Source of the DNA: a virus
Strand: one strand, 5' to 3'
IMG/VR virus record: IMGVR_UViG_3300005253_002057
Coordinates: 24,158-88,157 of that record
DNA: 64,000 nt
Both the position numbers and the translations under genes were made by a program. Within the stretch, counting starts at the first letter, position 1. The number at the start of each line of letters is the position of its first letter. Below, piece after piece: positions 4,409-50,945 of the stretch. A model generated the notes under the pieces. It was not told the DNA's origin. It searched no databases and worked only from the letters and a program-made list of their open reading frames with translations.

Positions 4409-5086
4409 ATGACTCTTATAGACACTGAGATTAAGGTAAGCGAGTTATTTACTTCTATACAAGGGGAAGGTAACTATGCTGGCTTTCCTACAACTTTTAT
4501 TCGATTATTTGGGTGTCCTCTTCGCTGTTCTTGGTGTGATAGCAAATATACTTGGGATAATAAAAGTAGATGGGAGCTATATTCTTTACAGGATATACTA
4601 AGGTATACACTCAGACAAAAGTCTAAATATGTATGCTTAACTGGTGGTGAGCCACTAGCAGACTATAATCTAGAACCTAGTAGATTAATTTGTGAAAGAA
4701 TTAGTCCGCACCGCAGTATTTCTGTAGAAACTTCTGGCTGCTTCATGTTACCTGGGTGGAGAAACTTGGTAGAGAGCTGGGTCTGGGATGTTAAACTTCC
4801 TGGGTCTGGTATGTTTGAAGAGAATGAATTAGATGAATTATCTAAGCTAGGTTTTAAGGATCAAGTTAAATTTATAGTAAAGGATTCCACTGACTTTGAG
4901 CAGGCTCTAGCTATATACAAAGAGTATAAGCTATCTTCAGTTAGTGGCTTGACAATACTATGGGCTCCGGTATATAATGAGTTAGATTTAAAGTGGTTTG
5001 CAGCTAAAGTGATTGCCCTGGGAGAAAATAATAGATTAAGCATACAAGTTCACAAATTAATTTGGAGAGAGAAAAGGGGAAAGTAA
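4409..5086 (+). CDS. queE: 7-carboxy-7-deazaguanine synthase (radical SAM)
   Basis: ELFTSIQGEG, CPLRCSWCDS, LTGGEP, VETSG, RLSIQVHK. Confidence 0.95.
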   Translation: MTLIDTEIKVSELFTSIQGEGNYAGFPTTFIRLFGCPLRCSWCDSKYTWDNKSRWELYSLQDILRYTLRQKSKYVCLTGGEPLADYNLEPSRLICERISPHRSISVETSGCFMLPGWRNLVESWVWDVKLPGSGMFEENELDELSKLGFKDQVKFIVKDSTDFEQALAIYKEYKLSSVSGLTILWAPVYNELDLKWFAAKVIALGENNRLSIQVHKLIWREKRGK

Positions 5087-7982: not shown

Positions 7983-10712
7983 ATGGCAAAAGCACAATGG
8001 GCTAGGCTAGATAAATCTTGGGCTTCTAGACTTGAGTTTTATGATCTTGATAAGCGAGATCAGAAAAAGCTTGCTGGAAAGCGTAAGCATCCTTTAGCTA
8101 AGTGTGAAGAATGTCCTCTTGAAAGAAAGGTATGTGTTCCTGGCTTTGGCACAAGAAAAGCACAGATAGTTTGGTGTGGTGAGTCTCCAGGGGCGCAAGA
8201 GTTATGGGCTAGGGAGCCTTATATAGGGCCTGCTGGAAAGCTACTAAAAGAAATACTCAAAGAGGAATCAATACCTATAGAGGACTGCTGGTTTACTAAC
8301 TCCACTCTTTGCTTAATGAGCGAAGATGAAGAATGGGCTGAGAAAGAAATACAAGCATGCTCAGATAGATTATTTGATGAGATAGCAGAAGTCAATCCTA
8401 AGTTGGTAGTTGCTTTAGGAGCAGATGCTTTCTACTCCCTTACTGGATTTGATGAAAAGATAACTTTAGTATCAGGTACTATGTTCAAAACAAAGGATGG
8501 AAAGTACGATGTACTACCTATAATCCATCCTGCTTATGTTCTTCATAATGAGGGAGAAGTGTCTAATTTTAGGCACTATGTACGTCAGGTATTTAGATTA
8601 GTTTATGCTCCCAGTCTTACCTCTAGACTTAAAGATCCAAATACTACATTAGTATTAGATGAAGATTGGGAAGATGCTTGTAACTTAGTTCATAAGAAGG
8701 CTAGTAAGACTGGGAAATTACTTATAGATATAGAGTCCACTGCCTATGATCCTTTAAGAGAGAATTTACTTATTGTAGGTGTTTCTCCTGATGGAATTAA
8801 CTCCTATCTTTTTCCTACTGCAGAATTTGATGAAGACGGAGAATGGTTAAGACCTATAGAGGAAAATGTTCCTGAAGAAAGTATTAAATTTAAGCAACTT
8901 AATAAGTTAATTTCTGAAAGAGAAGCCTTTGAGAGAGAAGGGCATAATGTAGACTTTGACCAGAAATGGTTGAAGAGTAGAGGCTTTGATGTATACTTTA
9001 CTAGAGATACTTTTCTTGCTGACTATACAATGCATGAACAAGCTGGAGGTCATGGACTTAAGTCATTAATAAATTATCACTTTGGAAATGATGACTGGGA
9101 GAAAACTCTAAAGAAGGGACTAGGAAAGATAAAGAACTACGCTGATATTCCAGTTATTTCAATGAACGAGTATGCTGGTAAAGATGTTGCTTGGAACTGG
9201 TCTCTAGGCGAGAGTCAGCGTAATGAGTTAATGACTGATGATGATAAGTTTGTACACGATGAGATACTCATAAAGTGTATGCACACATTCTCAGCTACTA
9301 CTTTAAGAGGCTATAAAGTAGATCTAAAGAAGTCTCTTGAGTTAGTAGAAGAGCTTACTGATAAACTGGATTATCATGCCTCCACTCTTAGGGATCTAGT
9401 TGAGGATACTAGCTTTAATCCCGGCTCCAGTATTAAGGTTTCTGCCTATCTATATGATGAGCTAGGGCTACCTACTATCCTTGGAAGAAACTCTCAGGCA
9501 AAAACTCTTAGGGCTGTACAATCTTATTGTATTGATAGAGTTACTAATGGGAATGATACAGACGGAACTCTTGCTCACGCTTTAGAGTTTATAGATTCTA
9601 AGTTGGAGTATGCTTCCCTTGCGAAAGAAGTAGGAACTTATGTAGTAGGAATAGTTAGAAAGCTAGGACCAGACTTAAGACTACATCCTAGAGTACGTTT
9701 AAGTGGGGCTGTTACTGGCCGTATTGCTATGGATGAGCCCTCTTTACTTAACTTCTTAAAGGGCTCAAGAGTTAGAGAGCAAATAGTTCCAGATAATGAT
9801 GAGTGGCTAATAGCTGAGGCTGATGCTAAACAGTTTGAGCTCCGCTACTATGCCGATTACATAAAAGATGAAACCTTAACTAAAGGATTGGCCAATCCAG
9901 ACTATGATCCTCATGATGAAGCTACTACTTTAATATTCAAGCAAGTAATAGAATTATGCAGAATTATAGCACGGGCTGAAGTTAAGGAGGTAGCTGAGAG
10001 AGCGTACGAGGACCTTAAGTTATTAGGTACTAAAACTGGTAGTTATCTTACTGAAGAAGCCAGAAGAGCAGTATTTTATTCAAAGCTCCCAGATAATATA
10101 TCAGCAATTCCTTTTGAACAAATAACGAAAGCCTTTTCTGACTGCTGTGATATATACAGAAGAATTGCAAAGACAGTAGTATTTGGACTTCTTTATAATA
10201 GAGGGGCTCAAGCTATAGCCAGGGCATTTAGAATTACATATGCTGATGCTTTATTATGGATAGAAGCTATAAAAGGTCCTTGGGAGGGAGTTCCTAGATA
10301 TGAGGACTATGTAAGAAAGTGTCTGGATGAAGATGGAAGAATAACTTCTCAGTTTAGACGTTGGCGTAGAGCCCCTTCAGTTAATGATACTAACTGGCAT
10401 GAATGGTTTAATGCTTTCATTAACTTTCCAATACAGTCTGCTTGCAATGATATAAATATGTTGAATATGAACTTGCTGTATAATAGGGAAGAGGAACTGG
10501 GAATCAAGGTAATGTGGCCTATTCATGACTCACAGATATTTCAAGTTAGAAAAGATGGATATAAAGAAAGATTAGCCTTTATTCAGACTTTACTAGAGGA
10601 AAATATACAAAAACTGGTAGGGGCAAAAGAAGTTAAGTTTGCAGTAGAGACAAAAGTGGGCCCTGACTGGTACAATGTTAAAGACGTATCAAAGTTTGAG
10701 CTGGTAGCCTAA
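7983..10712 (+). CDS. polA: family A DNA polymerase with N-terminal family-4 uracil-DNA glycosylase and 3'-5' exonuclease (SPO1-like architecture)
   Basis: UDG: CEECPL, GESPG, HPAY; exo: DIES, HNVDFD, YAGKD; pol: DAKQFELR, RRIAKTVVFGLLY, NFPIQS, IHDS. Confidence 0.93.
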   Translation: MAKAQWARLDKSWASRLEFYDLDKRDQKKLAGKRKHPLAKCEECPLERKVCVPGFGTRKAQIVWCGESPGAQELWAREPYIGPAGKLLKEILKEESIPIEDCWFTNSTLCLMSEDEEWAEKEIQACSDRLFDEIAEVNPKLVVALGADAFYSLTGFDEKITLVSGTMFKTKDGKYDVLPIIHPAYVLHNEGEVSNFRHYVRQVFRLVYAPSLTSRLKDPNTTLVLDEDWEDACNLVHKKASKTGKLLIDIESTAYDPLRENLLIVGVSPDGINSYLFPTAEFDEDGEWLRPIEENVPEESIKFKQLNKLISEREAFEREGHNVDFDQKWLKSRGFDVYFTRDTFLADYTMHEQAGGHGLKSLINYHFGNDDWEKTLKKGLGKIKNYADIPVISMNEYAGKDVAWNWSLGESQRNELMTDDDKFVHDEILIKCMHTFSATTLRGYKVDLKKSLELVEELTDKLDYHASTLRDLVEDTSFNPGSSIKVSAYLYDELGLPTILGRNSQAKTLRAVQSYCIDRVTNGNDTDGTLAHALEFIDSKLEYASLAKEVGTYVVGIVRKLGPDLRLHPRVRLSGAVTGRIAMDEPSLLNFLKGSRVREQIVPDNDEWLIAEADAKQFELRYYADYIKDETLTKGLANPDYDPHDEATTLIFKQVIELCRIIARAEVKEVAERAYEDLKLLGTKTGSYLTEEARRAVFYSKLPDNISAIPFEQITKAFSDCCDIYRRIAKTVVFGLLYNRGAQAIARAFRITYADALLWIEAIKGPWEGVPRYEDYVRKCLDEDGRITSQFRRWRRAPSVNDTNWHEWFNAFINFPIQSACNDINMLNMNLLYNREEELGIKVMWPIHDSQIFQVRKDGYKERLAFIQTLLEENIQKLVGAKEVKFAVETKVGPDWYNVKDVSKFELVA

Positions 10713-10733: not shown

Positions 10734-10774
10734 TAATGACCAAGGTTTACCATTGTCGCAGTTTCTCATATAAT
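10734..10774 (+). promoter_or_regulatory. promoter of capsid gene with conserved upstream box
   Basis: TTTACC(10746-51)-17 bp-TATAAT(10769-74); TAATGACCAAGGTTTA(10734-49) is repeated exactly at 20732-47. Confidence 0.65.
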
Positions 10775-10832
10775 CAGGGTGAGTTTAAGTGTGCAAGACA
10801 CTAATCTGGCTCAGAAAGTGAGGAACAGAACT

Positions 10833-11039
10833 ATGGAGATGGTAGGAGCGCTGATTGGCGTAGTTATAGCGATGGTAGTGGGAGTAGCCTTGCTTCCAGT
10901 CATTGTGAACACTATAGCCACCCTTAATACCGAGACCACAGATGCCTCGGTAATTTCCTTGGCGGGACTTCTTCCTATAATCCTGATTGCGATCGTGATT
11001 ATGGGAGCTGTGGCTTTCGTCGCCGGCGGTCTGGGCTAG
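10833..11039 (+). CDS. putative major capsid protein, spindle-shaped virus (fusellovirus VP1-like) two-helix type
   Basis: ALIGVVIAMVVGVALLPVIVNTIATL-loop-LAGLLPIILIAIVIMGAV; own promoter, GAGG RBS, more G/C-ending codons, structured 3' region. Confidence 0.75.
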   Translation: MEMVGALIGVVIAMVVGVALLPVIVNTIATLNTETTDASVISLAGLLPIILIAIVIMGAVAFVAGGLG

Positions 11040-11427: not shown

Positions 11428-14340
11428 ATGTTTAATATTGAAGAAGAACAAGAAGAAGAAAAAATCTGGGTTCTTAGTAAGAGATCTGATCAGAGAAAGA
11501 AAGACAAAAAGGCAAGTAAAGCTGCAGTAAGGGCTAGAAGAGGCGAAAGAAGAGAAAAGAGACTAAGTCTTAAGAAGGAGAAGAAGAAGAAAAAGTCTAC
11601 TGCTATTCAAAGGCTTAGGGGTAAAGGGCCAAAGATAAGTTCCACTCAGATAGTAGCTGAGAAAGCCTCTACTAGGGCTACTGCTCCTCCTTCTCCTGCT
11701 ACAGCTAGTGCTAGGCCTAAGCGAGGTGTAGTAGCAAGGGAGACACAGGCTCAGTTTAAGGCTTTTCAGGCACGAGAACAATTAAAAGCGGCCCCAGCTC
11801 TTTTAGCTGCTTTTAATAAAAAGGTTGCGGACCAGAGGGCAGCTTCAGCTAAGAAGCGAGAACAAGCAGCTAAGAAGCAAGCACAAGCAGCCCTAGTAGT
11901 TAAACTTCGAGATCAAAAGAGAATAGATGATAAGAAGGCTAGAAGTACTAGGTTTACGGCTCCAGCCATTACTGGCTCTACAACCTTTGAAGACGACGCA
12001 CCTGATACTGGACCCGCTTTTGCTAGAGCAGCTACCGCTAAAAGAGGAAAAGTCGCAGGATTGGCTTCACTAAGTCTTGCTGCTGCTACTAGTACACTAG
12101 CTACAACTAGGCCAACCACTGTAGCACCTAGAGATTTTAGGGATGTAAAACCTAGAGTTACTAGACCACCAGAGACTGAACGTTTTAGAGATGAAAAGGG
12201 ACAAACAGTAATAGACTTTGCTATATCCAGATCACTAGGTAGATTTACTAAACCTAGGCCACGATCTATTACAAGAGTTGCTAGTAAAGGAGTTGTTAGT
12301 AAAGGAGTTGTTAGTACAGGAGAAAAAATAAGGAGAAGAGCTGTAGCTATATTCAGACCTAGTGACGAAGGTAGAGGTAGACAAGATCTAGGTACTGGTA
12401 GAGGGACTAGGTTCTTTACCAAGAGAGCTATTGATCTACGGCCTGATTTTGAAGAAAGCGGACTTAGCCCAAGGCAAGGAAGATTTGTGGCCCGAGGACT
12501 AGGAGAAGCAACTAAAAGGGCAAAAGAAGTAGCCCTTACAACTCGCAGAGTTGGAACCACTTCAGAGGATATTAGACAAATTAGACTACGTGTAGGAAGG
12601 ACTCTTGGAAAAGCAACAGAAATAACTGATGCTAACCGAGCAGCAATAGAACGAGGGGAAATAGAATTTTTAACTCCTGTACCTAGCACTTTTAAGAGAG
12701 CACTAATAGCTGCTGAGGTTGGTAGCCTAATACTTCCTGGAGGTGTAGTTGCTAGGCCTGCAGGCTTTGTACTTAAAACAGTAGCAAGACCAGTAATAAG
12801 TTTTGCTGCTCCTAAAGTGGCTAGACTTGCTACACCTGTAGTTACTAGAACCACTGGTTTACTAGCTAGAGGATTGGCTAGGGAAAGAGTTATAACTGGG
12901 GGAGTAAGAAGTACTAGAGGACTGTTTCAGTCAGCAGCTCAGAGGGCAAGAGAGCTAGGTTCTTCTACCATAAGAGTAACATCCCCAGTAGCTACAAGAA
13001 CAGCAGCCGTAGCTTCAAGAACTACAGCTGCTGCAGGTAGAGCAGCCACTTTAGCAGCCAAGCCTGTTAGAGCAACTGGAGAAGGACTATTTAGTGTTGT
13101 TAGAGCTACACCTAGAGTAGCTAGAACAGCAGGACAAACTGTAAAAACTCTAGCAAGAGGGGCAGATGAGGGAGTAAGAATTAGTGCTAAAGCCTCTCGT
13201 CAGTTAGCCCAAACTGCCCAGCTTCAGGCTCTAGCAGCTAAACAAGGTGGTAGTGTAGTAAGAGTAGCTACTAGAAATCCATTTGCTGCATTTGGTAGAG
13301 GAGTAGCAGGCGCTACTAAGCTAGCTGCTAAGTCTACAGCAAGAAAAGCAGCCTCTCCAGGTAGACGTTTAGCTGCTCCAGCAGCTAAGGTAATTAAAGG
13401 AGCTAAAACAGGAGCAAGAGTTGGTACAAAGGTAGTTAAACCTGTAGCAAAGCCTGTATTACGAGGATCTGGTAGACTACTTAGAAGTCCAGTAGGCTTA
13501 GTAGCTGGGGGGCTAGGTGCAGTAGTAGGAGGAGGTTTAATACTACAAGGACTTAAAGGTGCTCCCCTTGCTCCAGCTCAGCAAGCCCCAGCCCCAGCTG
13601 CGCCAGCTGCTCCTCAAGATACTAGAAGACCCCAGAGACAGCAGCAACAGCAGGCTGCACAAGCTGTACAAGCTGCTCCAGCCCCAGCTAGAGGACCTGC
13701 TAGGGTTACTACAGTTACTCCTGTTACTGCGCCTAGTACAGTAGTAATAGATGAAGGGGCTACATCAGCCCCAAGTAGAACCCCTGTACCTATAACTACT
13801 ACTCCTGGTAAGATAGCTCAGACTATAGCGGTGCCTACTATAGGTCCTGATGGTCAACCTATTATAGACCCTATTACTGGGGAAGTAGTTACTACTGTAG
13901 TGGATATAGTAGATGTTCCTCTTGTTGAAGGTGAGCCTGATGTAAGTCCTTTACCTGCTATAGTCCCACTAGTAGCAGCTGCTGCAGGTATAGCAACTGG
14001 TCTTCTTTCAAGAGGCAGAGGTGGAGGAAGCTCTAGTCAATCATTCTTTGGTGGAAGTAGTTCTTTTATAGGGCCAACTATATTTAGAACAGCTGAGGGA
14101 CAGACTGGAATAAGAATAGTGAAGGATGGTAAAGGCACTATAACACTAGAAGTAGAGAGAGTTCCAGTTAAGAGATTTACCATTTTAGGTAGACCTTTAG
14201 TAAAGAGACCTACCAGAATCTTAGGAGCAGCAGTACAAAGTAAAGCAATAGCTTCTGCTGGTCAATCACTGCTCAATCCTCCAGTTGTAGGAAGTACAAC
14301 TGTACTGGCTAAAAGAGCTTTACAAGGAAGGCTTAGATAG
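11428..14340 (+). CDS. large, very basic Ala/Arg/Lys-rich low-complexity protein (possible virion core protein)
   Basis: 970-aa ORF between the two capsid-like genes; poly-K N-terminus, amphipathic A/R/K/T repeats, hydrophobic GLVAGGLGAVVGGGLIL, P/Q/A linker. Confidence 0.7.
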   Translation: MFNIEEEQEEEKIWVLSKRSDQRKKDKKASKAAVRARRGERREKRLSLKKEKKKKKSTAIQRLRGKGPKISSTQIVAEKASTRATAPPSPATASARPKRGVVARETQAQFKAFQAREQLKAAPALLAAFNKKVADQRAASAKKREQAAKKQAQAALVVKLRDQKRIDDKKARSTRFTAPAITGSTTFEDDAPDTGPAFARAATAKRGKVAGLASLSLAAATSTLATTRPTTVAPRDFRDVKPRVTRPPETERFRDEKGQTVIDFAISRSLGRFTKPRPRSITRVASKGVVSKGVVSTGEKIRRRAVAIFRPSDEGRGRQDLGTGRGTRFFTKRAIDLRPDFEESGLSPRQGRFVARGLGEATKRAKEVALTTRRVGTTSEDIRQIRLRVGRTLGKATEITDANRAAIERGEIEFLTPVPSTFKRALIAAEVGSLILPGGVVARPAGFVLKTVARPVISFAAPKVARLATPVVTRTTGLLARGLARERVITGGVRSTRGLFQSAAQRARELGSSTIRVTSPVATRTAAVASRTTAAAGRAATLAAKPVRATGEGLFSVVRATPRVARTAGQTVKTLARGADEGVRISAKASRQLAQTAQLQALAAKQGGSVVRVATRNPFAAFGRGVAGATKLAAKSTARKAASPGRRLAAPAAKVIKGAKTGARVGTKVVKPVAKPVLRGSGRLLRSPVGLVAGGLGAVVGGGLILQGLKGAPLAPAQQAPAPAAPAAPQDTRRPQRQQQQQAAQAVQAAPAPARGPARVTTVTPVTAPSTVVIDEGATSAPSRTPVPITTTPGKIAQTIAVPTIGPDGQPIIDPITGEVVTTVVDIVDVPLVEGEPDVSPLPAIVPLVAAAAGIATGLLSRGRGGGSSSQSFFGGSSSFIGPTIFRTAEGQTGIRIVKDGKGTITLEVERVPVKRFTILGRPLVKRPTRILGAAVQSKAIASAGQSLLNPPVVGSTTVLAKRALQGRLR

Positions 14341-14341
14341 A

Positions 14342-14563
14342 TTGGGAATTGTAAAAACCTTCGGAGCCTTTATAGGCACAGCCATAACACTAGTTTTGCT
14401 CTGGGAGTTTCTTCCAGTTATTCAGACTTTGTTTGATGGAGTTTCTGATAACTCAGTTCTGAGTGATAGGGAACTAGGGACTATAAGTCTACTACCTTTA
14501 ATAATAGTAATAATAATACTGCTGGGCTCTGCAGCTATAATAAGATCCAAACTAAAGAGATGA
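14342..14563 (+). CDS. minor capsid protein paralogue (VP3-like)
   Basis: FIGTAITLVLLWEFLPVIQTL...ISLLPLIIVIIILLGSA aligns by eye with 10833-11039 (LPVI and LLP motifs). Confidence 0.65.
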   Translation: MGIVKTFGAFIGTAITLVLLWEFLPVIQTLFDGVSDNSVLSDRELGTISLLPLIIVIIILLGSAAIIRSKLKR

Positions 14564-14687: not shown

Positions 14688-15770
14688 ATGCCTTACTCTC
14701 ATTCTTGGATAAAGCAGTTAGGACTTTCTATTGGGCTTGCTATAGTATTTATAGCAGGCTTTGTATATCTTACAGCCCCTCCCTGTGCCTTTGGAGCAGC
14801 TGAGTGTCCTGTAGGTTCAACTTCTGTATTCTCTGAGAATATAGGAATACAAGGTGGAACTACTTTTACTACAACTATAGATAGTACTCCTACAGGAGAT
14901 AGAACATATACTATACCTGCTACAGGAGCAAATGATACTTTTGCCCTACTTGGTACAAGTAATGTGTTTTCTGGTAGTGGGGCTCTACTAGATAAGTTTG
15001 TCAACTCTGGAGATGGTATAACTATTACAGTTGAGAATACTAATGGAACTCCAACTGGATTTAGTGTAGTAGATATAATTGGCCCTTCAAGCACCGCAAA
15101 CTATGAACTTCTTACTATATCTAATGATGGGGTAGATGAATCAGGAGATGTGCTTAAGATCACAGGTAATGGAGTCGTAGATGTTACCAGTGCTCAATTT
15201 AGCGTAAGTACCGCAGTAGGGGGATCTAGTGCTGGTGCAACTATAGCTATTCCAGCTAGTGGAACCGGAGATGCTGTAACCCTATTTAGTCAGGGCGCAG
15301 CAGATGGATCTGCTAATAATATGGGATATATAATGGGTTATGATGGTGGTGCAGGATATTTGAAGTTAGCAAGTACAGATACTGATGGAGCCTCTACTGA
15401 CGCAGATATCTGGAGAGTTCTAGATAGTCAGCTATCTATAGATGCTAACACTACTTGGGACGAGAATGTCTTTGACAGCTATAGAGATGCAGAACTATTA
15501 GCCGCTTCTATTAGTCCTTCAGCCCCTTCTTATCAGTTTGAAAATGGAAAAGTTTTAAGAGGAAGAGATGTTCTTATAGAAGTAGGTATTCTTAAGTCTT
15601 ATGATGATGAATTCGTAGGTTATAATGACCAGCGGATGGCAGCTTTGCTGGCAGGAGGCATATATCAATCAGCTGAACTTATAGAACGAAACATGGTGCT
15701 AATAGAAGAGTTAATAAATAAAGTAAATCTTTTAGAGAATGAGATCTGTGAACTTAAAGAAGCTTGTTAA
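14688..15770 (+). CDS. secreted/anchored beta-rich fibre-like virion protein with C-terminal coiled coil
   Basis: GGAGG RBS; N-terminal TM/signal; G/T/S/D-rich body; C-terminus LIEELINKVNLLENEICELK resembles fibre chaperone coils. Confidence 0.6.
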   Translation: MPYSHSWIKQLGLSIGLAIVFIAGFVYLTAPPCAFGAAECPVGSTSVFSENIGIQGGTTFTTTIDSTPTGDRTYTIPATGANDTFALLGTSNVFSGSGALLDKFVNSGDGITITVENTNGTPTGFSVVDIIGPSSTANYELLTISNDGVDESGDVLKITGNGVVDVTSAQFSVSTAVGGSSAGATIAIPASGTGDAVTLFSQGAADGSANNMGYIMGYDGGAGYLKLASTDTDGASTDADIWRVLDSQLSIDANTTWDENVFDSYRDAELLAASISPSAPSYQFENGKVLRGRDVLIEVGILKSYDDEFVGYNDQRMAALLAGGIYQSAELIERNMVLIEELINKVNLLENEICELKEAC

Positions 15771-18261
15771 CAAGCGATATCCTATTGCCTGGGCTATAGT
15801 ATTAGTTTTTGCTTTATTATTTATAAATGTCTTTGATTCTATAAGTAATAAAGCTTGTAAGACTTATGCTAATCACGTAGTAACTGACTTCTGTAGACAA
15901 ACTGACATATTTGTTACTAAGGTAAGTCCTGGAAATCTTAGTAACTATCCAGTAGCAGTTCCTATAGATCTTAGAGCCTATGTAGATGGAAATACTCTCT
16001 CTGAATTTGGCTGGGACATTCTTCCTGTACAAGGGGCTGAAGTTCCAGCTATGATACAAGATATAGACCCTGGAGATGTAGAGAGTATCTTTTGGATTCA
16101 GGGAGACTTATTAGGCAGTGAAGCCACTGTTACCTTTAATGTCTATACAGGTAATGCAGATTTTAAGCGAGATCAGGGAATTCTCTTACATCAAGCTTCT
16201 GGCGCCGACTCTTTATCAGTACTTGCCGATGCAGTCTTTAATATAACAGACAATATTGAAGTTATAGTACATGCAGATACTGATACACCAGATCAGAATG
16301 GAATTCTACTAGATAAGTTAAATGGAAATAATGGTTACCAGTTAGAAGTAACTACTACAGGAGCTGGTAGTATACTTGCCACAGTAGGGAGTGGTGCAGC
16401 TACTGATACTTTAGAAGTAGCTTGGACTGGTGATGAAACTATAAGAATGACCTTTGATGCAGGGGCTGTTAACGATTTAGATATATCATTTCTTAATGCT
16501 GCTGGAGTATGGGTATCTCAAGGAGATACAAATACAACCTTTGCTAGCTTAGGAACACATGGTAATGATCTTCTCATAGGCACTGGCTTTGATGGAGTTA
16601 TACAAGAAGTTGAAATAAGAGATGATGTAGGTTTAGGCTCCTATGCTAAAGTAGCCCAGTGGTCTTTTGATGCTAGAGATATAACTGAGACTCAAACTGG
16701 AACTGATGCAAATAGTTGGACTTATATAGGAACTGTAGAAGAACTTATATCAACGCACGACGCTACTTATACCTTAATAAATGACCAGTCAGGACTTAGC
16801 GTAGCTATAGGAACTGCTCCTTTAGTAAGTGGAGCCAGTTCGAGTATACAAGGAGTTGCTTTCGCACTCTCAGCCTTAGATTCTATAGCTGGACTAGCTG
16901 GGGCTACTAATGCAGTAGAAGCTTGGCAAAGAAATACTAATACATGGTATATAGGAGTAGTATACGATGTTGCTCCTTTTTTCTCAATACTAGAGTGGAA
17001 TGGAGATGCTCTATCAGTAAAGTCTACTGCTGGAGTAGGACTCATAACTGGACAAGGAAATGCTATATCTTCCTGGCCGTCTAGAACTGTAGTAAGTGAT
17101 AGAATTATAGCAATAGGGCATAACACAGCGCCCTTTCTAACATTATTAAGATGGGATGACAGTGCTCAAGCTATAATAGGGGAAGATACTCCAGCTTTAG
17201 CCCCTCAGGGTAATACTTTAGATCTTGTCCACTGGACTAATCCTAGAGTGAGCACTGTAACAATAGCTGTAGCCAACGTAGTTGATGTAGAATTTTACTC
17301 CTATTCAGAACGAGAATCCAATCTTAGCTTTAAAGGAAGTCCTACAATACCTATCCCAGAGCTAACTGCAATTACTTCTATATCCATACCTCAGGAATTT
17401 AGAAAGAGAACAGTAAATACTAATTTAGATGTAGAGGACACAAGCGTATTTATAACTCAAGCCCAGGCTTTTGGTGCTGATGTTCTTAGTTGGTTATGGA
17501 TAGATAGCTCTAACGCTGACGAAGATGTAGCAGATGACGACTTTAGCCTTACTGATGACACTACTGATATAATAGTCTGGAATGATCGAGAGGGTGATGC
17601 TTCTGAGCACTTAATACTTATTGCTTATTCTTCAGGCAGTGAGTTAAGAGTACTAAGAACTAGTCATGAAAAAGGTAGTATATTATCTCAAGCCACTATA
17701 AACTCTGCTGGAACTAGTACAGCGGTAGATAGCTGGAGTACAGAAGTTGTGGCTAGCAGACTAATTGCCTCTACTTATATTACTACAGCTAGAGTAGACT
17801 TACTAACATGGAATGAGCAAGCTTTAGGAACAGTAGCTACCTTAGGTTTAGCCACCTCTCCAACTCATCTTACTTCTTGGAAAGAACCTGCAGACACTGT
17901 AGTAGCTGCAGTAGAAAGTCAAATATTAGCCATAAGCTGTGGCTCATGTAATGGAGTGTCTATAGTAAGAGCTTCAGTATCACTGGAGGAAATAATAGTA
18001 AGAGAAGAAGGGCTAGACTTTATAGAAACCTTTGCAGCTCAAGTAGGTTTAGACTCAGTGGCTGCAGCTGGTATAGTAATACTCCTTTCTTTTGTAGGTA
18101 TATATATAATAGAAGGAAATCTAATAGGTTCAGGGCTAGTTACGTCTGGCCTGCTAATATACTTTTTAGTAACAGGACTTATAGGTTTCTGGGTTGCTAT
18201 ACCTATAGTATTTCTAGGACTATTTGCACTGTATAGTAGATATAGAGGAGCCTGGGAATAG
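15739..18261 (+). CDS. membrane-anchored surface/spike protein (LamG-like plus beta-repeat region)
   Basis: N-terminal signal; LLIGTGFDGVIQEVEI LamG-like strand; three C-terminal TM helices. Confidence 0.65.
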   Translation: MRSVNLKKLVNKRYPIAWAIVLVFALLFINVFDSISNKACKTYANHVVTDFCRQTDIFVTKVSPGNLSNYPVAVPIDLRAYVDGNTLSEFGWDILPVQGAEVPAMIQDIDPGDVESIFWIQGDLLGSEATVTFNVYTGNADFKRDQGILLHQASGADSLSVLADAVFNITDNIEVIVHADTDTPDQNGILLDKLNGNNGYQLEVTTTGAGSILATVGSGAATDTLEVAWTGDETIRMTFDAGAVNDLDISFLNAAGVWVSQGDTNTTFASLGTHGNDLLIGTGFDGVIQEVEIRDDVGLGSYAKVAQWSFDARDITETQTGTDANSWTYIGTVEELISTHDATYTLINDQSGLSVAIGTAPLVSGASSSIQGVAFALSALDSIAGLAGATNAVEAWQRNTNTWYIGVVYDVAPFFSILEWNGDALSVKSTAGVGLITGQGNAISSWPSRTVVSDRIIAIGHNTAPFLTLLRWDDSAQAIIGEDTPALAPQGNTLDLVHWTNPRVSTVTIAVANVVDVEFYSYSERESNLSFKGSPTIPIPELTAITSISIPQEFRKRTVNTNLDVEDTSVFITQAQAFGADVLSWLWIDSSNADEDVADDDFSLTDDTTDIIVWNDREGDASEHLILIAYSSGSELRVLRTSHEKGSILSQATINSAGTSTAVDSWSTEVVASRLIASTYITTARVDLLTWNEQALGTVATLGLATSPTHLTSWKEPADTVVAAVESQILAISCGSCNGVSIVRASVSLEEIIVREEGLDFIETFAAQVGLDSVAAAGIVILLSFVGIYIIEGNLIGSGLVTSGLLIYFLVTGLIGFWVAIPIVFLGLFALYSRYRGAWE

Positions 18262-18265
18262 TAAT

Positions 18266-18595
18266 ATGAGAGCTGTAATAATATTTACATTACTTTTTTA
18301 CTCCTTGGTTGGCTTTATAATAACTAAGCTTCCTACTCCTGACCAAGCAGAGGGCTTCAATATAATAACTGAAGCTGACATAGAAGAAACTGTAGTAGTA
18401 AAAGCTTCTGAGCAGCCTAGCCCAGCTACTGCCATAGTAGTGGCAGGACTAAATCTCTTTGCAGTAATAAAGACTATATATCTATTACTTAGCTTTCAAT
18501 TAAGTGGAGTTCCATTTCTTATAAATCTATTGTTCTTAGTCCCAGCAAATATAACAGTCTATATGGTAGCAGTCCAGTTGGTTAGAGGGGGCTAG
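18266..18595 (+). CDS. membrane protein of virion module
   Basis: Three hydrophobic segments; lies between two spike-like genes. Confidence 0.65.
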   Translation: MRAVIIFTLLFYSLVGFIITKLPTPDQAEGFNIITEADIEETVVVKASEQPSPATAIVVAGLNLFAVIKTIYLLLSFQLSGVPFLINLLFLVPANITVYMVAVQLVRGG

Positions 18596-20734
18596 ATGAC
18601 TAAGAAACTAGCAGGGCTAGTTCTAGTCTTTATATTCTTTCTAAGTAGCTTTACTTCAGTACCAGTATCTGAAGCTTCGCATTTAGGAATAGAGTTTCTG
18701 TTTGATAATGGAGACCATTTTATAGCTGGAGAACCTGTAAGAATTAGATTGAGAATAGACTTTACAGTAGGAGCTCTTTTCACAATACAGTTAGTAAGAC
18801 TTGATACCTCGGAAGTAAAAAACATACAAACCTTTGTAGTTCCAGCAGCTATAAATGGCTTTAGTACTATAAATTATGAGTATAAGTCTGAGGCTACTGA
18901 TTTCTTTCCCTTCTCTTTAGTAGCTACTGATTTAGATGCTATATCTAGAATAGCCTTTATAGCTATTCTTCCTAATAGCATAGCTAGTTCTCAAGGTGCT
19001 TTCGATAACTTAGCTCTTGATACAGTCTATATAGTTGATGCAAGCCCAGATTTTGAGCTTAGATTAAATGACTATACTTTTAAGCAGGGGGAGTACATAG
19101 TAGTCTGGCATAGATTAGAAACAGTTGCAGAATCAGTAGCCCCTGATATAGTAGAGCATGTATCTAATCAAGATGTTAGATCGGAACTTCAGCTTTATGA
19201 CGTAGCCTTTAACTCAAATGGAGTAGTACTACCAATAAATAAGCCTCCAGAGGCTACTGATAATCCACGTTATACCTTACTTGTTCCTGTGTTCGAAGGA
19301 GAAACTAGTACCCCTTTCACTGATAATACTCACGCTATCCCTAACAGTGGACTATTTGTAATTGGATTAGATAAGTCAGATCAATCTATAGATAGATTTA
19401 CTGGAGGATCTGGCACTATGGCTGCTAGGACTCCAGATAAATCTAGTGTCTTAGGAGCAACATGGACTAACCAAGTAGGAACTTGGTCAGTAGATGGTAG
19501 CGGAAAAGCTTCTCCTACTGCATCTGCTGCTTCTGGACCTTATACCTTTAGCGCAGTAACTACATTACAAGATGGAGCTACTGCATTTAGTAATAAGACC
19601 TTTTCTGCAGCCATAGACATAGATACAGTAGCAGCTGCTGGTAGTGTTGGGATAGTTACTAACTGGACAGATTCAAATAATCATTGGCGCTTTATAATTA
19701 CTTGGGATGCTACTCCAGCTGACGCTACATTTTCTATAGGTAATTATAATGCTGGGGTGTTGTCTGAAGTAGCTTCTGGAGCTATTACTCTTGCAGTAGA
19801 TGACGTAGTTAATCTTTTTGTTAGTGTGGATAAAGAAGGAACACAAGGAAACTGGACTATACTGGCTTTAAAAGGAGACCAGTCCCCTACGTTAGGAGAT
19901 AATGTAACTGTAGTCGAGCCTTTATTAGAGTTCTCCTTTGCAGATAATACTTTATTAGATGCTGATGGCCCAGATACTTGGGGTCTAATAGCTACAAGTG
20001 CAGTGGATGCAGCTAATGTACTTAACAGATCTGTAGAGTATATAGCCTGGACTGCATTACTACCCTCTGTGCTAGCAGTAAATGAGCCTGACCATGCTCA
20101 AAACTTTGTAGATCAATATGGGCTAGAAAATCCAGTAGTAGGTATAGCTATATCAGGAAAGTCTTTCGAGGTTATAGAACAGTTTAATGTAGTATCACTT
20201 AACTCAGAGCAACTAGTAAAACTAGCCCATCCAGATGCTAAAGTATTTACCAGCTTTAATAGTAAGGTACTGCAAGATACTGGAACTGCTACTAGACAAG
20301 AATTAGCCTATTCTTATAGGGATTCCAGAACTTTGAATCTAGGTACAGTTGTATGCTGCTCAGATGATACTCATCATATATCACTGGAGCTAGCATCTAC
20401 TAGAGTAAATTCTAGAACTGGTAGTACTTATGTCTGGATATTAGCAACTGAGTATACTGTAGGGCAAGTAAGAAGTGTAGTGGGGGGATTAAACAGACTA
20501 TCTGGAAGCTTTGGGATGGGCGATACTAAAGGACATATTGCTTTTGCTTTTATACTTTCTCTTTTAGTTACCATACTTATGCTACACTTTTCCCTAACAG
20601 GATCTATTATAGCTGGGACTACACTATGGATAGGACTTGTAGTAATAGGTTATGTACCACCTTGGACGCTGATGTTTCTAGTACTAATAGGAGGATTACT
20701 AAATGTAACAGGGCTCCTAAGTAGGGAAGTATAA
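18596..20734 (+). CDS. secreted beta-rich virion protein with C-terminal TM anchors
   Basis: Signal peptide ending SEA-S; lectin-like middle region; three C-terminal hydrophobic helices. Confidence 0.65.
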   Translation: MTKKLAGLVLVFIFFLSSFTSVPVSEASHLGIEFLFDNGDHFIAGEPVRIRLRIDFTVGALFTIQLVRLDTSEVKNIQTFVVPAAINGFSTINYEYKSEATDFFPFSLVATDLDAISRIAFIAILPNSIASSQGAFDNLALDTVYIVDASPDFELRLNDYTFKQGEYIVVWHRLETVAESVAPDIVEHVSNQDVRSELQLYDVAFNSNGVVLPINKPPEATDNPRYTLLVPVFEGETSTPFTDNTHAIPNSGLFVIGLDKSDQSIDRFTGGSGTMAARTPDKSSVLGATWTNQVGTWSVDGSGKASPTASAASGPYTFSAVTTLQDGATAFSNKTFSAAIDIDTVAAAGSVGIVTNWTDSNNHWRFIITWDATPADATFSIGNYNAGVLSEVASGAITLAVDDVVNLFVSVDKEGTQGNWTILALKGDQSPTLGDNVTVVEPLLEFSFADNTLLDADGPDTWGLIATSAVDAANVLNRSVEYIAWTALLPSVLAVNEPDHAQNFVDQYGLENPVVGIAISGKSFEVIEQFNVVSLNSEQLVKLAHPDAKVFTSFNSKVLQDTGTATRQELAYSYRDSRTLNLGTVVCCSDDTHHISLELASTRVNSRTGSTYVWILATEYTVGQVRSVVGGLNRLSGSFGMGDTKGHIAFAFILSLLVTILMLHFSLTGSIIAGTTLWIGLVVIGYVPPWTLMFLVLIGGLLNVTGLLSREV

Positions 20735-20795
20735 TGACCAAGGTTTATCCCTGCCACAGCCAAGACTTGACACTTGGCGCAATCTGATGTATAAT
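20732..20795 (+). promoter_or_regulatory. consensus sigma70 promoter with operator-like boxes
   Basis: TTGACA(20767-72)-17-TATAAT(20790-95); -35 flanked by inverted GCCAAG/CTTGGC; upstream TAATGACCAAGGTTTA. Confidence 0.9.
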
Positions 20796-20804
20796 TAATA
20801 TATA

Positions 20805-21347
20805 ATGATTTTAACTAATAATCCAGCTGCTATACAACTACTCCTTGTGATAAGTGTACTCTTTACTGCAGGATTAATTCTAGCCTTATACTTTGGCTTT
20901 AGAAGATGGATAGCAGCTAGAATGTTAGTATGGGTAATACACCCAGATAGAAGACTAAGCAAACATATGGTTAGACCAGAATCTGACGGTAATATAAGAA
21001 TACCTAAGATAGGGTCTAGATTTCTTTTCACTCCTGCTGATGTATTCTACTCCAGTCTTCCTTTAGTAGGGGAACCAATTCCAGCAATAATGTGTCACAT
21101 AGATAAACCTGAGGCGCTGGATATAATAGGGCTAGTTCCCAAAGAAGGTATAACTTCTACTGAGTTATCAAGTGCTTTCGATAATAGAATGTTAGAGCAG
21201 TGGGTAAGAGCTACTAAAGAGCCAGGATTGGCTAGATTAAGGTCTACTTTGGTAATAGGATTAGCAGCCGTGCTGCTTGCAGTACTAGGTTCTACATACT
21301 TTATTGCTACCTCAGTATTAGGTCCTATAAGCCTACTGGAAAGATAA
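20805..21347 (+). CDS. two-TM membrane protein (assembly operon)
   Basis: N- and C-terminal TM helices; first gene after the promoter; co-operonic with ATPase. Confidence 0.7.
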   Translation: MILTNNPAAIQLLLVISVLFTAGLILALYFGFRRWIAARMLVWVIHPDRRLSKHMVRPESDGNIRIPKIGSRFLFTPADVFYSSLPLVGEPIPAIMCHIDKPEALDIIGLVPKEGITSTELSSAFDNRMLEQWVRATKEPGLARLRSTLVIGLAAVLLAVLGSTYFIATSVLGPISLLER

Positions 21348-21350
21348 AAA

Positions 21351-21830
21351 ATGGAATTCTTTTCTAAGCAAAAGACTAAGTCATCTAATAATGGAGCCAC
21401 TCCTAGTGAGAACTCTTCTAGCAATAATAAAGTAGAAGCTGGGGATAATAACTTTAGAAGCGCCTTTTGGCAGAGTCTAGCTGGACAGGCACCTACTACA
21501 GAAGGGGGCCAAGGTTTAGCCTCTCTATTAGGTATAGGAGGTCTTGGCGGAGACGATAATCAAAATGCTTTAGAGTTATTTGACATTCCTACAGACTTTG
21601 GTGATCTTCATGAGCTTAGAAGACTAATAGCAAAGTCTGATATTCCAGCTGAGTTGGTACAACCACTAATGACTTTACTAGGATTGGCTGAAAGATTTGC
21701 ATCCAAGCTAGTTCCAAGCCTAGTAGGTTGGTACTTGGTAGGTAGAATAGGAAAGAATAGACTTGGACGGGAAGAGTTTATCAGAGCAACTCAACGGCAA
21801 GCCTTAGTACAGAAGGACGATGATGACTAA
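21351..21830 (+). CDS. hypothetical protein (assembly operon)
   Basis: Abuts the ATPase gene. Confidence 0.65.
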   Translation: MEFFSKQKTKSSNNGATPSENSSSNNKVEAGDNNFRSAFWQSLAGQAPTTEGGQGLASLLGIGGLGGDDNQNALELFDIPTDFGDLHELRRLIAKSDIPAELVQPLMTLLGLAERFASKLVPSLVGWYLVGRIGKNRLGREEFIRATQRQALVQKDDDD

Positions 21831-22367
21831 GTGGCTATAACAGTGATAACTGGCCCTATGGGAAGTGGAAAGACTACTCTTATGACTGCAGTAGGAGTAC
21901 TGGCCCATGAACTAGATGGAGTTAGGATATTCTGTAACTATCGCTTGACTGGTATAGAACATACCTTTTTTAGACCTACTGAGTTTGCCGACTTGATGGA
22001 GGCTGAGGAATTAAATAATTGCATAGTTCTATTAGACGAGGCATATCTTCTTATGGATTCCCGTACTTCTGGTGCTAGGATAAATAGATTATTTTCCGCT
22101 TTTACTTACCAAGCAAGAAAAAGAGGAGTAGACTTACTAGTAGTTACTCATCATACAGATCATATAGATAAGCGAATAAGAAGAGCCATGTCTTATAGAT
22201 GGAGGCCTAGATTTAATCCAACTACTCATGTAATAACTGTATACTCAAAGGCTGAAGAAGTAGGGCATAGGTCTAGATTCAAGATACAAGCAGATAAGTT
22301 CTGGCCTTACTTTGACACTAATGAGATTCCTATTATAAGCAAGCAGTTAAAGAGGGTAGTATTTTAA
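21831..22367 (+). CDS. Zot/inovirus pI-like morphogenesis ATPase (no TM)
   Basis: ITGPMGSGKT, IFCNY, LLDEAYLLMDSR, QARKRGVDLLVVTH, IDKRIR. Confidence 0.85.
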   Translation: MAITVITGPMGSGKTTLMTAVGVLAHELDGVRIFCNYRLTGIEHTFFRPTEFADLMEAEELNNCIVLLDEAYLLMDSRTSGARINRLFSAFTYQARKRGVDLLVVTHHTDHIDKRIRRAMSYRWRPRFNPTTHVITVYSKAEEVGHRSRFKIQADKFWPYFDTNEIPIISKQLKRVVF

Positions 22368-22541
22368 TCAAGAAGCTGTTCCAGTACAGCTTAGTAGGGG
22401 ATTGTGCTTCTGTACTGTGTAGCTAACTGCTAAGAAGGAGGTTGTCATGAGCTTTGGCCCTGGCGTAAAGATTTAGGCTATAGGCTAACTGAAAAAGATC
22501 CGGTTGAGGAAGCGTGAGATATAGGCGATCAAGTTACTACT

Positions 22542-23240
22542 GTGGTGGACTCCCCTACTAAGGAAAAGTCCCTAGATGAAATTAGGACTAACCTAGCAAA
22601 GTCCTATGTTGAGAACAGTGGTGGCTTGGTCGCTGTATATAATAGGGAAGAAATAACATTTCTATTAAGTATTCTAACTAGAGCTCTAGAAGGTAGTACT
22701 TTTCCAGGTCAGCAAAGAATAGTTAATGAAACTAGACAACTTCTAAGTAAATGGGACTGGAGCAAGCTTCCAGCTGAACTAGAGGGTAACTTAAAGCTTT
22801 ACGTCTTTAATAGACTTAAGTTAGAAAAATCAAAGACCTACACTTTTAGAAGAGTAGAGGCTTTAATATTTGCTGACCAGAATAAGGAGAAGGGTTTGAA
22901 TCAAGAAAATCAAGGAAGTAGTAGCCTAGAACAGTACGCAGAGTCTCAAGATGAAGACTCAGAAGTAATAGATTTGCAGAAAGCGGATGACGAAGAGTTC
23001 ACCTACTATGTAGTTAGGGCTGAGGAATTCTCCCGCTTTGAGCTAGCTACTATTTTAATTTCGATGGGAAATCAGTCGGAAGAAGATCTACAAGTAAGAC
23101 TTCACGAAGAATTACTTATAGTATCTGATGACCCTGACTTAGAAGATCATCAAGAAGAAAGTCTTGCTGTCTATATACTTGACCTAGAAAAGGATGGAGG
23201 TATTTTAGATAAGAAGGCTCTAGATGAACAAAAAGACTAG
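22542..23240 (+). CDS. acidic hypothetical protein
   Basis: 232-aa ORF with genome-typical codon usage. Confidence 0.6.
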   Translation: MVDSPTKEKSLDEIRTNLAKSYVENSGGLVAVYNREEITFLLSILTRALEGSTFPGQQRIVNETRQLLSKWDWSKLPAELEGNLKLYVFNRLKLEKSKTYTFRRVEALIFADQNKEKGLNQENQGSSSLEQYAESQDEDSEVIDLQKADDEEFTYYVVRAEEFSRFELATILISMGNQSEEDLQVRLHEELLIVSDDPDLEDHQEESLAVYILDLEKDGGILDKKALDEQKD

Positions 23241-23246
23241 TCTGTA

Positions 23247-23561
23247 ATGAATAAGGTTCAATATATCTTATCTCTATGGTATTATATACTAGGAGATATA
23301 ACTAAAGAAATAGTAGAGTTGCTAAATTCAATAGCTATACACTATGCTCCTGAGCCCCCTCTAGATATATCTGACAAAGGTAATCTTAATCTATTCGACT
23401 TATTACTACTAGGCACTTACGAAGGAGGCAAGATAATGGCTGGGCTTCTTAGAAAAGGCCTAGTAGCATATAGAAAAGGTATGATAATAGGGGGAAAAGC
23501 CTTAATAGCATACTCTAAAAAGAAACGCAGGGAGAAAAAGCAAAGACAGGGAGTGGGATGA
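23247..23561 (+). CDS. hypothetical protein with basic C-terminus (internal start 23436 with GGAGG possible)
   Basis: ORF track; RBS before MAGLLRKG. Confidence 0.5.
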   Translation: MNKVQYILSLWYYILGDITKEIVELLNSIAIHYAPEPPLDISDKGNLNLFDLLLLGTYEGGKIMAGLLRKGLVAYRKGMIIGGKALIAYSKKKRREKKQRQGVG

Positions 23562-23752
23562 CTAAGAAAGCAGCTACTCTAGGGGACATAAAAAAGGCGG
23601 CTAACTCCTATCATAAAGGGGTAAAGGAGGCTAGCAAAAGCTTTCATGGTACCTATGGAGGGGGCATAAAAGACTTAACTAAGCATCTAGGTAGAAAAAA
23701 GACTTCTATAAAGGGAAGAAAGGTAAGGGCTAGAAACAGTCTAAAATTCTAG
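23558..23752 (+). CDS. small basic protein
   Basis: Lys-rich 64 aa; ATGA coupling. Confidence 0.6.
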   Translation: MTKKAATLGDIKKAANSYHKGVKEASKSFHGTYGGGIKDLTKHLGRKKTSIKGRKVRARNSLKF

Positions 23753-23769
23753 CGCTTAATTAATGCTTA

Positions 23770-24012
23770 ATGAGTGAAGAATCTGAGACTGAGGATGAAA
23801 ACTCTGTAGAATCTGTAGTATTGAGGTTTGCAGGTTTTATAGCTGGTTTATTCATATTCCTTCATTTCTTACAGAGAATGGAGACTAACCAGCTTTTTCT
23901 TTTTCTAGCCTTTATAGGGCTGGGCCTAGGACTGCATGTAGGATTTACTGCTTGGCAAGGATTTGGGGCAGTAAGAAAAAAGAGGGATGAGGCTAAGGAG
24001 CGTTATAAATGA
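23770..24012 (+). CDS. two-TM membrane protein
   Basis: Acidic N-terminus, two TMs, basic C-terminus. Confidence 0.65.
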   Translation: MSEESETEDENSVESVVLRFAGFIAGLFIFLHFLQRMETNQLFLFLAFIGLGLGLHVGFTAWQGFGAVRKKRDEAKERYK

Positions 24013-37887: not shown

Positions 37888-37916
37888 TTGACATTATCAT
37901 CAAGATGATGTATAAT
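37888..37916 (+). promoter_or_regulatory. consensus sigma70 promoter
   Basis: TTGACA(37888-93)-17-TATAAT(37911-16); spacer palindrome ATCATC-AA-GATGAT. Confidence 0.9.
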
Positions 37917-41518: not shown

Positions 41519-41520
41519 TA

Positions 41521-50894: not shown

Positions 50895-50945
50895 TTTACC
50901 AAGCCTTGGTAAAAACTTGACATTACTGTCACAATGATGTATAAT
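50895..50945 (+). promoter_or_regulatory. consensus sigma70 promoter with upstream palindromic operator
   Basis: TTTACCAAG-C-CTTGGTAAA(50895-913); TTGACA(50917-22)-17-TATAAT(50940-45). Confidence 0.9.

Follow-up and report, generated by a model that had tools for sequence, protein, structure and literature searches.

A three-gene unit with a membrane-helix-free Zot/pI-type ATPase closes the structural gene block of a large marine-sediment virus and may serve assembly at the membrane

We describe three adjacent genes, referred to below as the trio, in a stretch of 64,000 nucleotides (nt) of viral DNA (positions 24,158 to 88,157 of the IMG/VR record IMGVR_UViG_3300005253_002057). This stretch, the window, is the right-hand 64 kb of one 88,157-nt virus contig assembled from a marine sediment metagenome, and nearly all of its genes are carried by the + strand. 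The trio encodes a membrane protein, a small soluble partner and a P-loop ATPase, and is preceded by a sigma-70-type promoter:

20767-20795, + strand: sigma-70-type promoter TTGACA-17 nt-TATAAT, with 12 of 12 consensus positions matched
20805-21347, + strand: gene of a 180-residue membrane protein, ATG start
21351-21830, + strand: open reading frame (ORF) of a 159-residue soluble partner
21831-22367, + strand: gene of a 178-residue P-loop ATPase with the Zot/pI fold, its GTG start abutting the stop codon of the partner gene

The three genes are tightly packed, with 3 nt between the membrane protein gene and the partner gene and 0 nt between the partner and ATPase genes. Hydropathy analysis finds two hydrophobic segments in the 180-residue protein (about residues 6-33 and 141-175) and none in either the 159-residue partner or the 178-residue ATPase, as the original prediction, made from this DNA alone, had stated. 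The promoter (TTGACA at 20767-20772, a 17-nt spacer and TATAAT at 20790-20795) lies within the 70 nt that separate the stop of a 712-residue gene (20734) from the ATG at 20805, and the separate consensus promoter proposed for the trio is thereby confirmed. With its -10 box ending 9 nt before this ATG, the mRNA should have little or no leader.

The ATPase has a Walker A motif GPMGSGKT (residues 8-15) and a Walker B motif LLDE (66-70), in which G8, G11, G13, K14, D69 and E70 are invariant across 22 ATPase sequences. As a single sequence it matches Pfam AAA with 36.5 bits and Pfam Zot (PF05707) with 25.9 bits, above the Zot cut-off of 20.3, and a precomputed PF05707 match is present in 22 of 24 homologues; its PHROG matches are phrog_1979 and phrog_197 ('Zot-like' toxin). 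When the profile of 22 homologues is compared with PDB sequences, the best match is 2r2a, the N-terminal domain of zonular occludens toxin (E 6.9e-11), followed by AAA+ proteins at about 5e-4. The AlphaFold2 model, with a predicted local distance difference test score (pLDDT) of 86, gives the same answer in a Foldseek search, where 2r2a ranks first (E 8.9e-10, TM 0.68/0.64), above RecA/RAD51 (about 4e-7) and the STIV packaging NTPase B204 (about 2e-6). In BFVD the top match is an Inoviridae Zot (E 8.9e-14), followed by an acid-mine-drainage virus protein, ATV ORF286 and an Acholeplasma phage L2 protein, while NCBIfam returns Walker-A-level ABC matches only, far under their cut-offs. Judged from these profiles and from the model, the 178-residue protein is the Zot/pI ATPase domain alone, and the Zot-like assignment of the original prediction stands. 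For comparison, an inovirus Zot of 398 residues has its hydrophobic segment at 187-211, and M13 pI is 348 residues long. Only three of 85 family members show a hydrophobic stretch, always N-terminal, which we read as the result of an ORF called too far upstream. A search for longer relatives gave a single protein of 331 residues, with an insertion but without a membrane helix.

The nearest relatives of this ATPase belong to viruses other than inoviruses. A tblastn search of phage records gives Muninn virus of Odinarchaeum (1e-10), the Lokiarchaeota virus WyrdV1 (1e-8) and an inovirus Zot (4e-5), and the family profile matches WyrdV1 at 2.2e-34, Muninn virus at 4.6e-27 and His1 ORF16 at 2.2e-7, with no match in SSV1 at E up to 0.1. 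A blastn search of phage records with the trio region returned no match, nor did a scan of viral contigs with a single protein as query. The relatives collected from our scans are four viral, two genomic and 113 metagenomic loci (80 of the 113 were kept), some of them on contigs of 88-119 kb. In a tree with M13 pI and an inovirus Zot as outgroup (support values from the Shimodaira-Hasegawa-like approximate likelihood ratio test), the window ATPase groups with two proteins of 67% identity (support 100) inside a clade of 47 ATPases from metagenome loci (92), some of which are on large contigs; this clade is sister to WyrdV1 plus Muninn virus (87), and inovirus pI falls outside (96). By sequence, then, the closest relatives are the helix-free pI-like ATPases of the archaeal spindle viruses WyrdV1, Muninn virus and His1, and not inovirus pI. 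That the WyrdV1 ATPase is helix-free has already been published (Medvedeva et al., bioRxiv 10.1101/2021.07.29.453957), so that an ATPase of this kind is normal for the clade and no local oddity.

Several features of the family deserve separate mention. Most members carry a CxxC-rich insertion of about 50 residues between the core and the C-terminal strand, which looks like a zinc ribbon in the alignment and gives a DnaJ-type PF00684 match in one member; the subclade of the window ATPase (window, P0002 and P0003) has no such insertion. A relative on a 109.6-kb contig has, just before its ATPase gene, a degenerate 61-residue copy of the ATPase N-terminus with GSGMT for GSGKT (L002 9787-9972), and about 32 kb from there the ATPase profile finds a second, remote match (G001:C1:54288-54536). 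In Muninn virus (OM716000) the pI-like ATPase gene has no annotated coding sequence in GenBank; it is an open frame of 230 residues (L008 3983-4672; about 8031-8720 of the record, minus strand). Its true start may be non-canonical, because the first standard start (TTG) falls after the Walker A region.

The gene order around the ATPase is conserved together with the protein. Synteny of the trio was scored with hidden Markov models (HMMs) of the partner and of the two-helix membrane protein, the partner being counted in loci with at least 400 nt of upstream sequence and the membrane protein in loci with at least 6 kb. Of 57 loci scored for the partner, 51 have it upstream of the ATPase gene on the same strand, and in 30 of these the two genes abut (within 60 nt); the membrane protein gene precedes the ATPase gene in 17 of 21 loci. 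In loci L005 and L017 all three genes are contiguous, and L017 has the order two coat genes, two small genes, membrane protein, partner and ATPase, which places coat genes about 1 kb upstream of the trio. L001, L005 and L006 share the order of the window: a large anchored protein, a membrane protein of about 115-120 residues, the two-helix protein, the partner and the ATPase. More broadly, about 80 loci have the ATPase gene in a constant place as the last of the structural block, and a layout of an anchored beta-domain protein, a soluble protein of about 110 residues and a helix-free ATPase recurs in WyrdV1, Muninn virus and Moorella phage MCACPph1. Two relatives come from archaeal bins of metagenome-assembled genomes (Bathyarchaeia and Thermoplasmatales), although binning is weak evidence. 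On the points that the original prediction had named as decisive, namely the phylogeny of the ATPase and its synteny, the protein is of the Zot/pI type, the trio is conserved, and coat homologues adjoin it in relatives such as L017.

The partner, too, links the trio to the archaeal viruses. Residues 1-75 of the 159-residue protein are of low complexity and its C-terminal helical domain of about 80 residues is conserved. It is homologous to the gene that precedes the ATPase in WyrdV1 and Muninn virus (HMM E 2.4e-4 and 0.042), and a comparison with the wyrdvirus gene by hhalign gives P 3.2e-5 over 81 columns, where negative controls give P 0.8-0.9. The corresponding Moorella protein matches the partner family at P 0.27, and homology is not shown there. 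The 180-residue membrane protein is modeled by AlphaFold2 with a pLDDT of 67.7 overall and about 80 in its beta domain, as a helix (7-37), a beta domain of about 65 residues (40-105), a short helix (125-137) and a membrane helix (142-171). Positive charges flank the central part of the protein in all homologues, and the central beta domain is therefore predicted to be cytoplasmic. A fold search with the whole model finds single-helix or coiled-coil matches only (Z up to 5.2), and comparison with the tail-anchored proteins of WyrdV1, Muninn virus and the Moorella phage yields no significant homology (P 0.05-0.46). A profile search of 1.84 billion representative sequences finds 167 clusters of this family at 50% identity, nearly all of 160-210 residues. 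Two long matches of a six-sequence profile, each with six repeated stretches, were discarded; P0141 is a repetitive protein and its match spurious. Fused forms are absent both from the 167 clusters and from the search for longer ATPases, and the 'split pI' of the original prediction is not supported as an evolutionary fission, while its functional idea, a pI-like assembly machine, is reasonable.

The trio stands at the end of a structural block, whose other elements, together with a 16-nt repeat and the perfect promoters, are the following:

10734-10749, + strand: first exact copy of the 16-mer TAATGACCAAGGTTTA, overlapping the weak -35 box (TTTACC) of the coat-gene promoter
10833-11039, + strand: gene of a 68-residue two-helix hairpin protein, the putative major coat protein, with likely ATG start at 10833 (GTG start at 10779 by the ORF finder)
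14342-14563, + strand: gene of a second, 73-residue protein with two hydrophobic helices, read from the translation and without family match
15739-20734, + strand: genes of 840-residue and 712-residue spike-like proteins with C-terminal membrane anchors and of a 123-residue membrane protein between them, read from the translations and directly upstream of the trio
20732-20747, + strand: second exact copy of the 16-mer, overlapping the TAA stop of the 712-residue gene
4949-4978, 20767-20795, 37888-37916 and 50917-50945: perfect sigma-70 sites inside the window, three further sites lying to its left

The coat protein matches phrog_11172 (E 4.9e-5), identified as the SSV1 VP1 family in a 2026 preprint (bioRxiv 10.64898/2026.09.15.751708), and in phmmer searches of a set of 2203 ORFs it matches SSV1 VP1 (2.7e-4), His1 ORF21 (VP21; 8.5e-4) and the coat proteins of L017 (3e-19). 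On these sequence matches the window coat protein is related to SSV1 VP1 and His1 VP21, and the 73-residue protein is possibly a minor coat paralogue. The order coat (10833), anchored spike-like proteins (15739-20734) and trio is like that of WyrdV1. Between the coat gene and the second hairpin gene lies a 970-residue protein (11428-14340) with no family match and no phmmer homologue in the related loci; L005 has an 877-residue protein a few genes upstream of its anchored spike-like genes.

The promoter of the trio is one of a set. The 88-kb genome contains seven perfect sigma-70 sites, where 300 dinucleotide-preserving shuffles give a mean of 0.093 and a maximum of 1. All seven are co-oriented with the genes: the right arm carries five, all on the + strand, and the left arm two, both on the - strand. 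In four cases an ATG follows after 6-9 nt, which implies leaderless mRNAs. This set is not accidental. It also sets the window virus apart from its relatives, whose loci, totalling 508 kb, contain no perfect site and only seven that match 11 of 12 positions.

The original prediction had further noted a 16-bp box common to the promoters of the trio and of the capsid gene, and TAATGACCAAGGTTTA is indeed present in exactly two exact copies, at 10734 and 20732. The coat-gene promoter combines the weak -35 box with a TATAAT -10 box at 10769-10774. If transcription starts are placed by means of the -10 boxes, the centres of the copies fall near -40 of the coat promoter and about -62 of the trio promoter, which would correspond to the classical class II and class I activator positions. 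Both copies also begin with TAATG and open short ORFs starting MTKVY, of 22 and 17 codons (10734-10802 and 20732-20787), and variants with three mismatches at 23245 and 30339 likewise read TAATGA..AAGG at a stop/start junction; the 16-mer could therefore be a translation-level or coding element instead of an activator site.

How far the transcript of the trio extends is less clear than where it may begin. The next gene starts at 22542, 174 nt behind the ATPase gene, and between 22367 and 22542 we find no terminator and no promoter of at least 9/12; the region 20000-24000 has no Rfam match, and the RNA fold of 22365-22475 is no better than that of shuffled sequences (z 0.66). Because neither a terminator, an RNA family nor such a promoter precedes 22542, the 'three-gene operon' of the original prediction is bounded at its 5' end only: its own promoter and tight packing stand, and its 3' boundary is not defined. 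The gap contains a strong Shine-Dalgarno sequence, AAGGAGG; an ATG at 22448, 5 nt behind it, opens an ORF of nine codons (22436-22477). It is quite possible, if somewhat doubtful, that the trio is no dedicated operon and that the promoter at 20767 acts as an internal booster in a long structural transcription unit, running from the coat promoter near 10770 past 22367 into genes of 232 and 1641 residues and beyond. Besides the empty gap, such a unit would agree with the absence of any terminator seen in 20734-20767, with the unbroken continuation of the trio from the spike genes in relatives, and with the position of the following perfect + strand promoter, which is not reached until 37888. Three observations speak against it, namely that a perfect promoter with its own upstream 16-mer is placed exactly in the 70-nt gap, that the 174-nt gap behind the ATPase compares with 3 and 0 nt inside the trio, and that in relatives the region behind the ATPase contains no homologues of the genes past 22542. 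A longer transcript would touch only the extent of the unit and is compatible with the function that we propose below.

The remainder of the genome is that of a large virus. The original prediction had given more than 64 kb, which is right as to large size, and the contig extends this to at least 88,157 nt. We found no terminal repeats on the contig, and its last 30 nt (63971-64000 of the window, CTGTCTCTTATACACATCTCCGAGCCCACG) are a Nextera transposase adapter, thus library sequence and not virus, so that the true right end of the genome is not defined by the contig. In sweeps of 75 ORFs of the window and 25 of the left arm with Pfam and PHROG, the matches listed include no terminase, portal, HK97, tail or lysin family and no jelly-roll or HK97 shell protein; no integrase is among the Pfam matches listed, nor any secretin (pIV-type) family among the 25 of 28 Pfam families listed for the 75 window ORFs. 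The same sweeps identify PolA (a family A polymerase), preQ0-type enzymes, ThyX, a dUTPase and a glycan gene cluster, and PolA and a PolB-like gene are located away from the ATPase, elsewhere in the genome. OmpR-type and LuxR-type regulators and a bacterial sugar transferase are also encoded. The glycan-synthesis cluster (39505-50893) comprises a UDP-sugar dehydrogenase, an NAD-dependent epimerase, an FkbM-type methyltransferase, a 595-residue bacterial-type sugar transferase, a Wzy-type polymerase/ligase and a further methyltransferase, and may have a role in decorating the spikes or the coat.

Comparison with known systems places the trio nearest to the wyrdviruses. In WyrdV1 and Muninn virus, as in the window, a homologous helix-free ATPase comes last in a block headed by His1-like coat proteins and an adhesin; the gene directly before the ATPase is homologous to the partner, and the gene before that encodes a membrane-anchored beta-domain protein. 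The ATPase of WyrdV1 is entered in its record as 'related to morphogenesis (pI) proteins' and closes a block of coat, adhesin and five small genes, and five conserved genes between adhesin and ATPase have been described for wyrdviruses of Asgard archaea (bioRxiv 10.1101/2021.07.29.453957). The anchored proteins of WyrdV1, Muninn virus and MCACPph1 have the position and architecture of the 20805 protein minus its N-terminal helix, with no significant similarity, and that of WyrdV1 is annotated as B277-like, after SSV1. The archaeal viruses differ from the window in their genomes of 12.7-15.6 kb and in a membrane protein with a C-terminal anchor only, whereas the window virus has at least 88 kb, bacterial-type promoters, PolA, a preQ0-type pathway and a glycan cluster. 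His1 (Halspiviridae) is similar through its ORF16 ATPase and ORF21 coat protein and through the small membrane proteins before ORF16, but the similarity is distant: its genome is 14.5 kb, its host haloarchaeal, and ORF16 has 308 residues with an annotated helix-turn-helix region. In SSV1 (Fuselloviridae) the series B277-C102-A153-B251 likewise has an ATPase closing a run of small genes after the structural genes, and VP1 is related to the window coat; B251, however, does not match the ATPase family profile.

Inovirus pI/Zot (PF05707; M13 gene I; 2r2a) has in common with the window ATPase the fold of its N-terminal ATPase domain and the Walker motifs. It differs by its membrane helix and periplasmic domain, by pXI made from an internal start, by the pIV secretin and by the small single-stranded DNA genomes that are extruded; the window virus has the 178-residue domain alone, a two-helix hairpin coat as opposed to the single-helix pVIII type, and a large genome that encodes PolA. 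The inovirus-like frame of the original prediction thus gives way to one in which the coat is a hairpin of the SSV1 VP1/His1 VP21 type and the nearest ATPases are those of WyrdV1, Muninn virus and His1.

Two bacterial elements are also comparable. Dehalococcoides IME1 has a pI-like ATPase and small hydrophobic phrog_11172 proteins without tailed-phage hallmarks, and has been proposed to be a budding or filamentous double-stranded DNA (dsDNA) virus (Nesbo et al., bioRxiv 10.64898/2026.09.15.751708). Compared by description only, it resembles the window in its ATPase and hydrophobic protein and differs in its size of 21-28 kb, its integration in the host genome and the position of its membrane and coat genes downstream of the ATPase. 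Moorella phage MCACPph1 (OR602863), which also has a bacterial host, shows the order of a 118-residue tail-anchored protein, a 115-residue soluble protein and a 212-residue helix-free Zot-like ATPase (L098 5285-6639); it differs in having 20 kb and an integrase, and its sequence similarity is confined to the ATPase (tblastn E 4e-3), which sits on a long branch of the tree. MCACPph1 also encodes several small hydrophobic proteins and may be a tailless membrane-assembled virus, because its 'Hoc-like' and 'tail fiber J' annotations look doubtful; we found no mention of it in the literature.

Based on the above data, we favour, with moderate confidence, a reading in which the trio, with its ATPase, concludes the gene block for virion assembly in a large tailless virus with a His1/SSV1-type hairpin coat, and in which the ATPase drives assembly at the membrane. 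Transcription would start at the bacterial sigma-70-type promoter, giving a probably nearly leaderless mRNA on which the three ORFs would be translationally coupled. The predicted products are a membrane protein with a cytoplasmic beta domain between two helices, a small cytoplasmic helical protein and a soluble ATPase with intact Walker motifs, which may form a complex. Most likely the partner, the membrane protein or both would bring the ATPase to the inner face of the cell membrane, and the topology and synteny of the 20805 protein make it a plausible anchor. Coat hairpins and anchored spikes would already be inserted at the site where the ATPase docks, and ATP hydrolysis could drive the viral DNA into the coat lattice as it grows and expel the particle without lysis. 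The function would be analogous to that of pI/pXI of filamentous phages, performed by separate polypeptides.

Some of our results weigh against this proposal. The operon has no defined 3' end, and downstream genes may share its transcript; the membrane protein gene is not always next to that of the ATPase, the distance in relatives being 290 nt to 9.4 kb. The similarity of the membrane protein to the tail-anchored proteins of WyrdV1 and Muninn virus (P 0.05-0.07) is not significant. The PADLOC defence model mad8 partially matches the ATPase (E 8e-11, residues 52-123). Finally, the egress role of the ATPase clade would be carried over by analogy from inovirus pI.

It is unlikely, in our estimate, that the trio is instead a genome-packaging motor. 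In that case a container of membrane and coat would form first, and the ATPase, docked on small membrane proteins at one unique site, would pump the 88-kb dsDNA into it. PRD1 packages its DNA with the ATPase P9 and the membrane proteins P20 and P22, and a soluble ATPase beside small membrane proteins is compatible with either model; an 88-kb dsDNA genome is far beyond known inovirus-type extrusion, and the fold search lists STIV/STIV2 B204 and A32-like packaging ATPases as well. These packaging NTPases are, however, outscored by Zot/pI matches by 3-7 orders of magnitude, no jelly-roll or HK97 shell protein is among the listed sweep matches, and the closest relatives of the ATPase are found in spindle viruses, for which lysis-free, budding-like release is reported (bioRxiv 10.1101/2021.07.29.453957).

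A role unrelated to assembly is unlikely, and participation of the ATPase in replication initiation, DNA handling, defence or counter-defence seems very improbable to us: the partial mad8 match, the higher Pfam score for AAA than for Zot and the analogous position of SSV1 B251 after B277, C102 and A153 are outweighed by the lack of any other PADLOC system component scoring near the ATPase, by the silence of the family profile in SSV1, by the fixed place of the gene at the end of structural blocks and by the location of the PolA and PolB-like replication genes elsewhere in the genome. We take B251 itself to be a DnaA-like AAA+ protein, presumably with a role in replication initiation or DNA handling.

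The seven perfect sigma-70 promoters, against 0.09 expected, argue for a bacterial host, so far as promoter sequence can indicate one; PolA has 22-24% identity to bacteriophage polymerases, and the Pfam sweep of the left arm finds no marker specific to either bacteria or archaea. As a guess, a wall-less or S-layer host in marine sediment, such as a member of the Dehalococcoidia, would fit. It is worth noting that the three-gene unit in small archaeal spindle viruses and the helix-free ATPase were already known, and that the new elements are the genome size and the seven perfect sigma-70 promoters.

Our tentative view, which we hold as a possibility worth pursuing, is that the window virus belongs to a lineage of very large (80-120 kb) tailless hairpin-coat viruses, that this member, with its sigma-70 promoters and leaderless mRNAs, infects a bacterium, and that it uses for assembly and release a three-part counterpart of pI (anchored beta-domain protein, small adaptor and soluble ATPase), ancient and shared with viruses of Asgard archaea. 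Hairpin-coat (spindle-type) viruses with a pI-like ATPase have so far been treated as archaeal and small in genome; here such an assembly unit is met in a genome of at least 88 kb with perfect bacterial promoters. Sediment metagenomes contain at least 113 relatives, of which some are on contigs as long as 119 kb. The recurring three-gene unit offers a concrete and testable answer to how a helix-free ATPase could act at a membrane, and links the extrusion of filamentous phages with the budding of spindle viruses. If this view is true, a virion architecture regarded as exclusively archaeal would, along with the motor for its egress, reach into bacteria and into genomes five to six times the size of any His1-type spindle virus.

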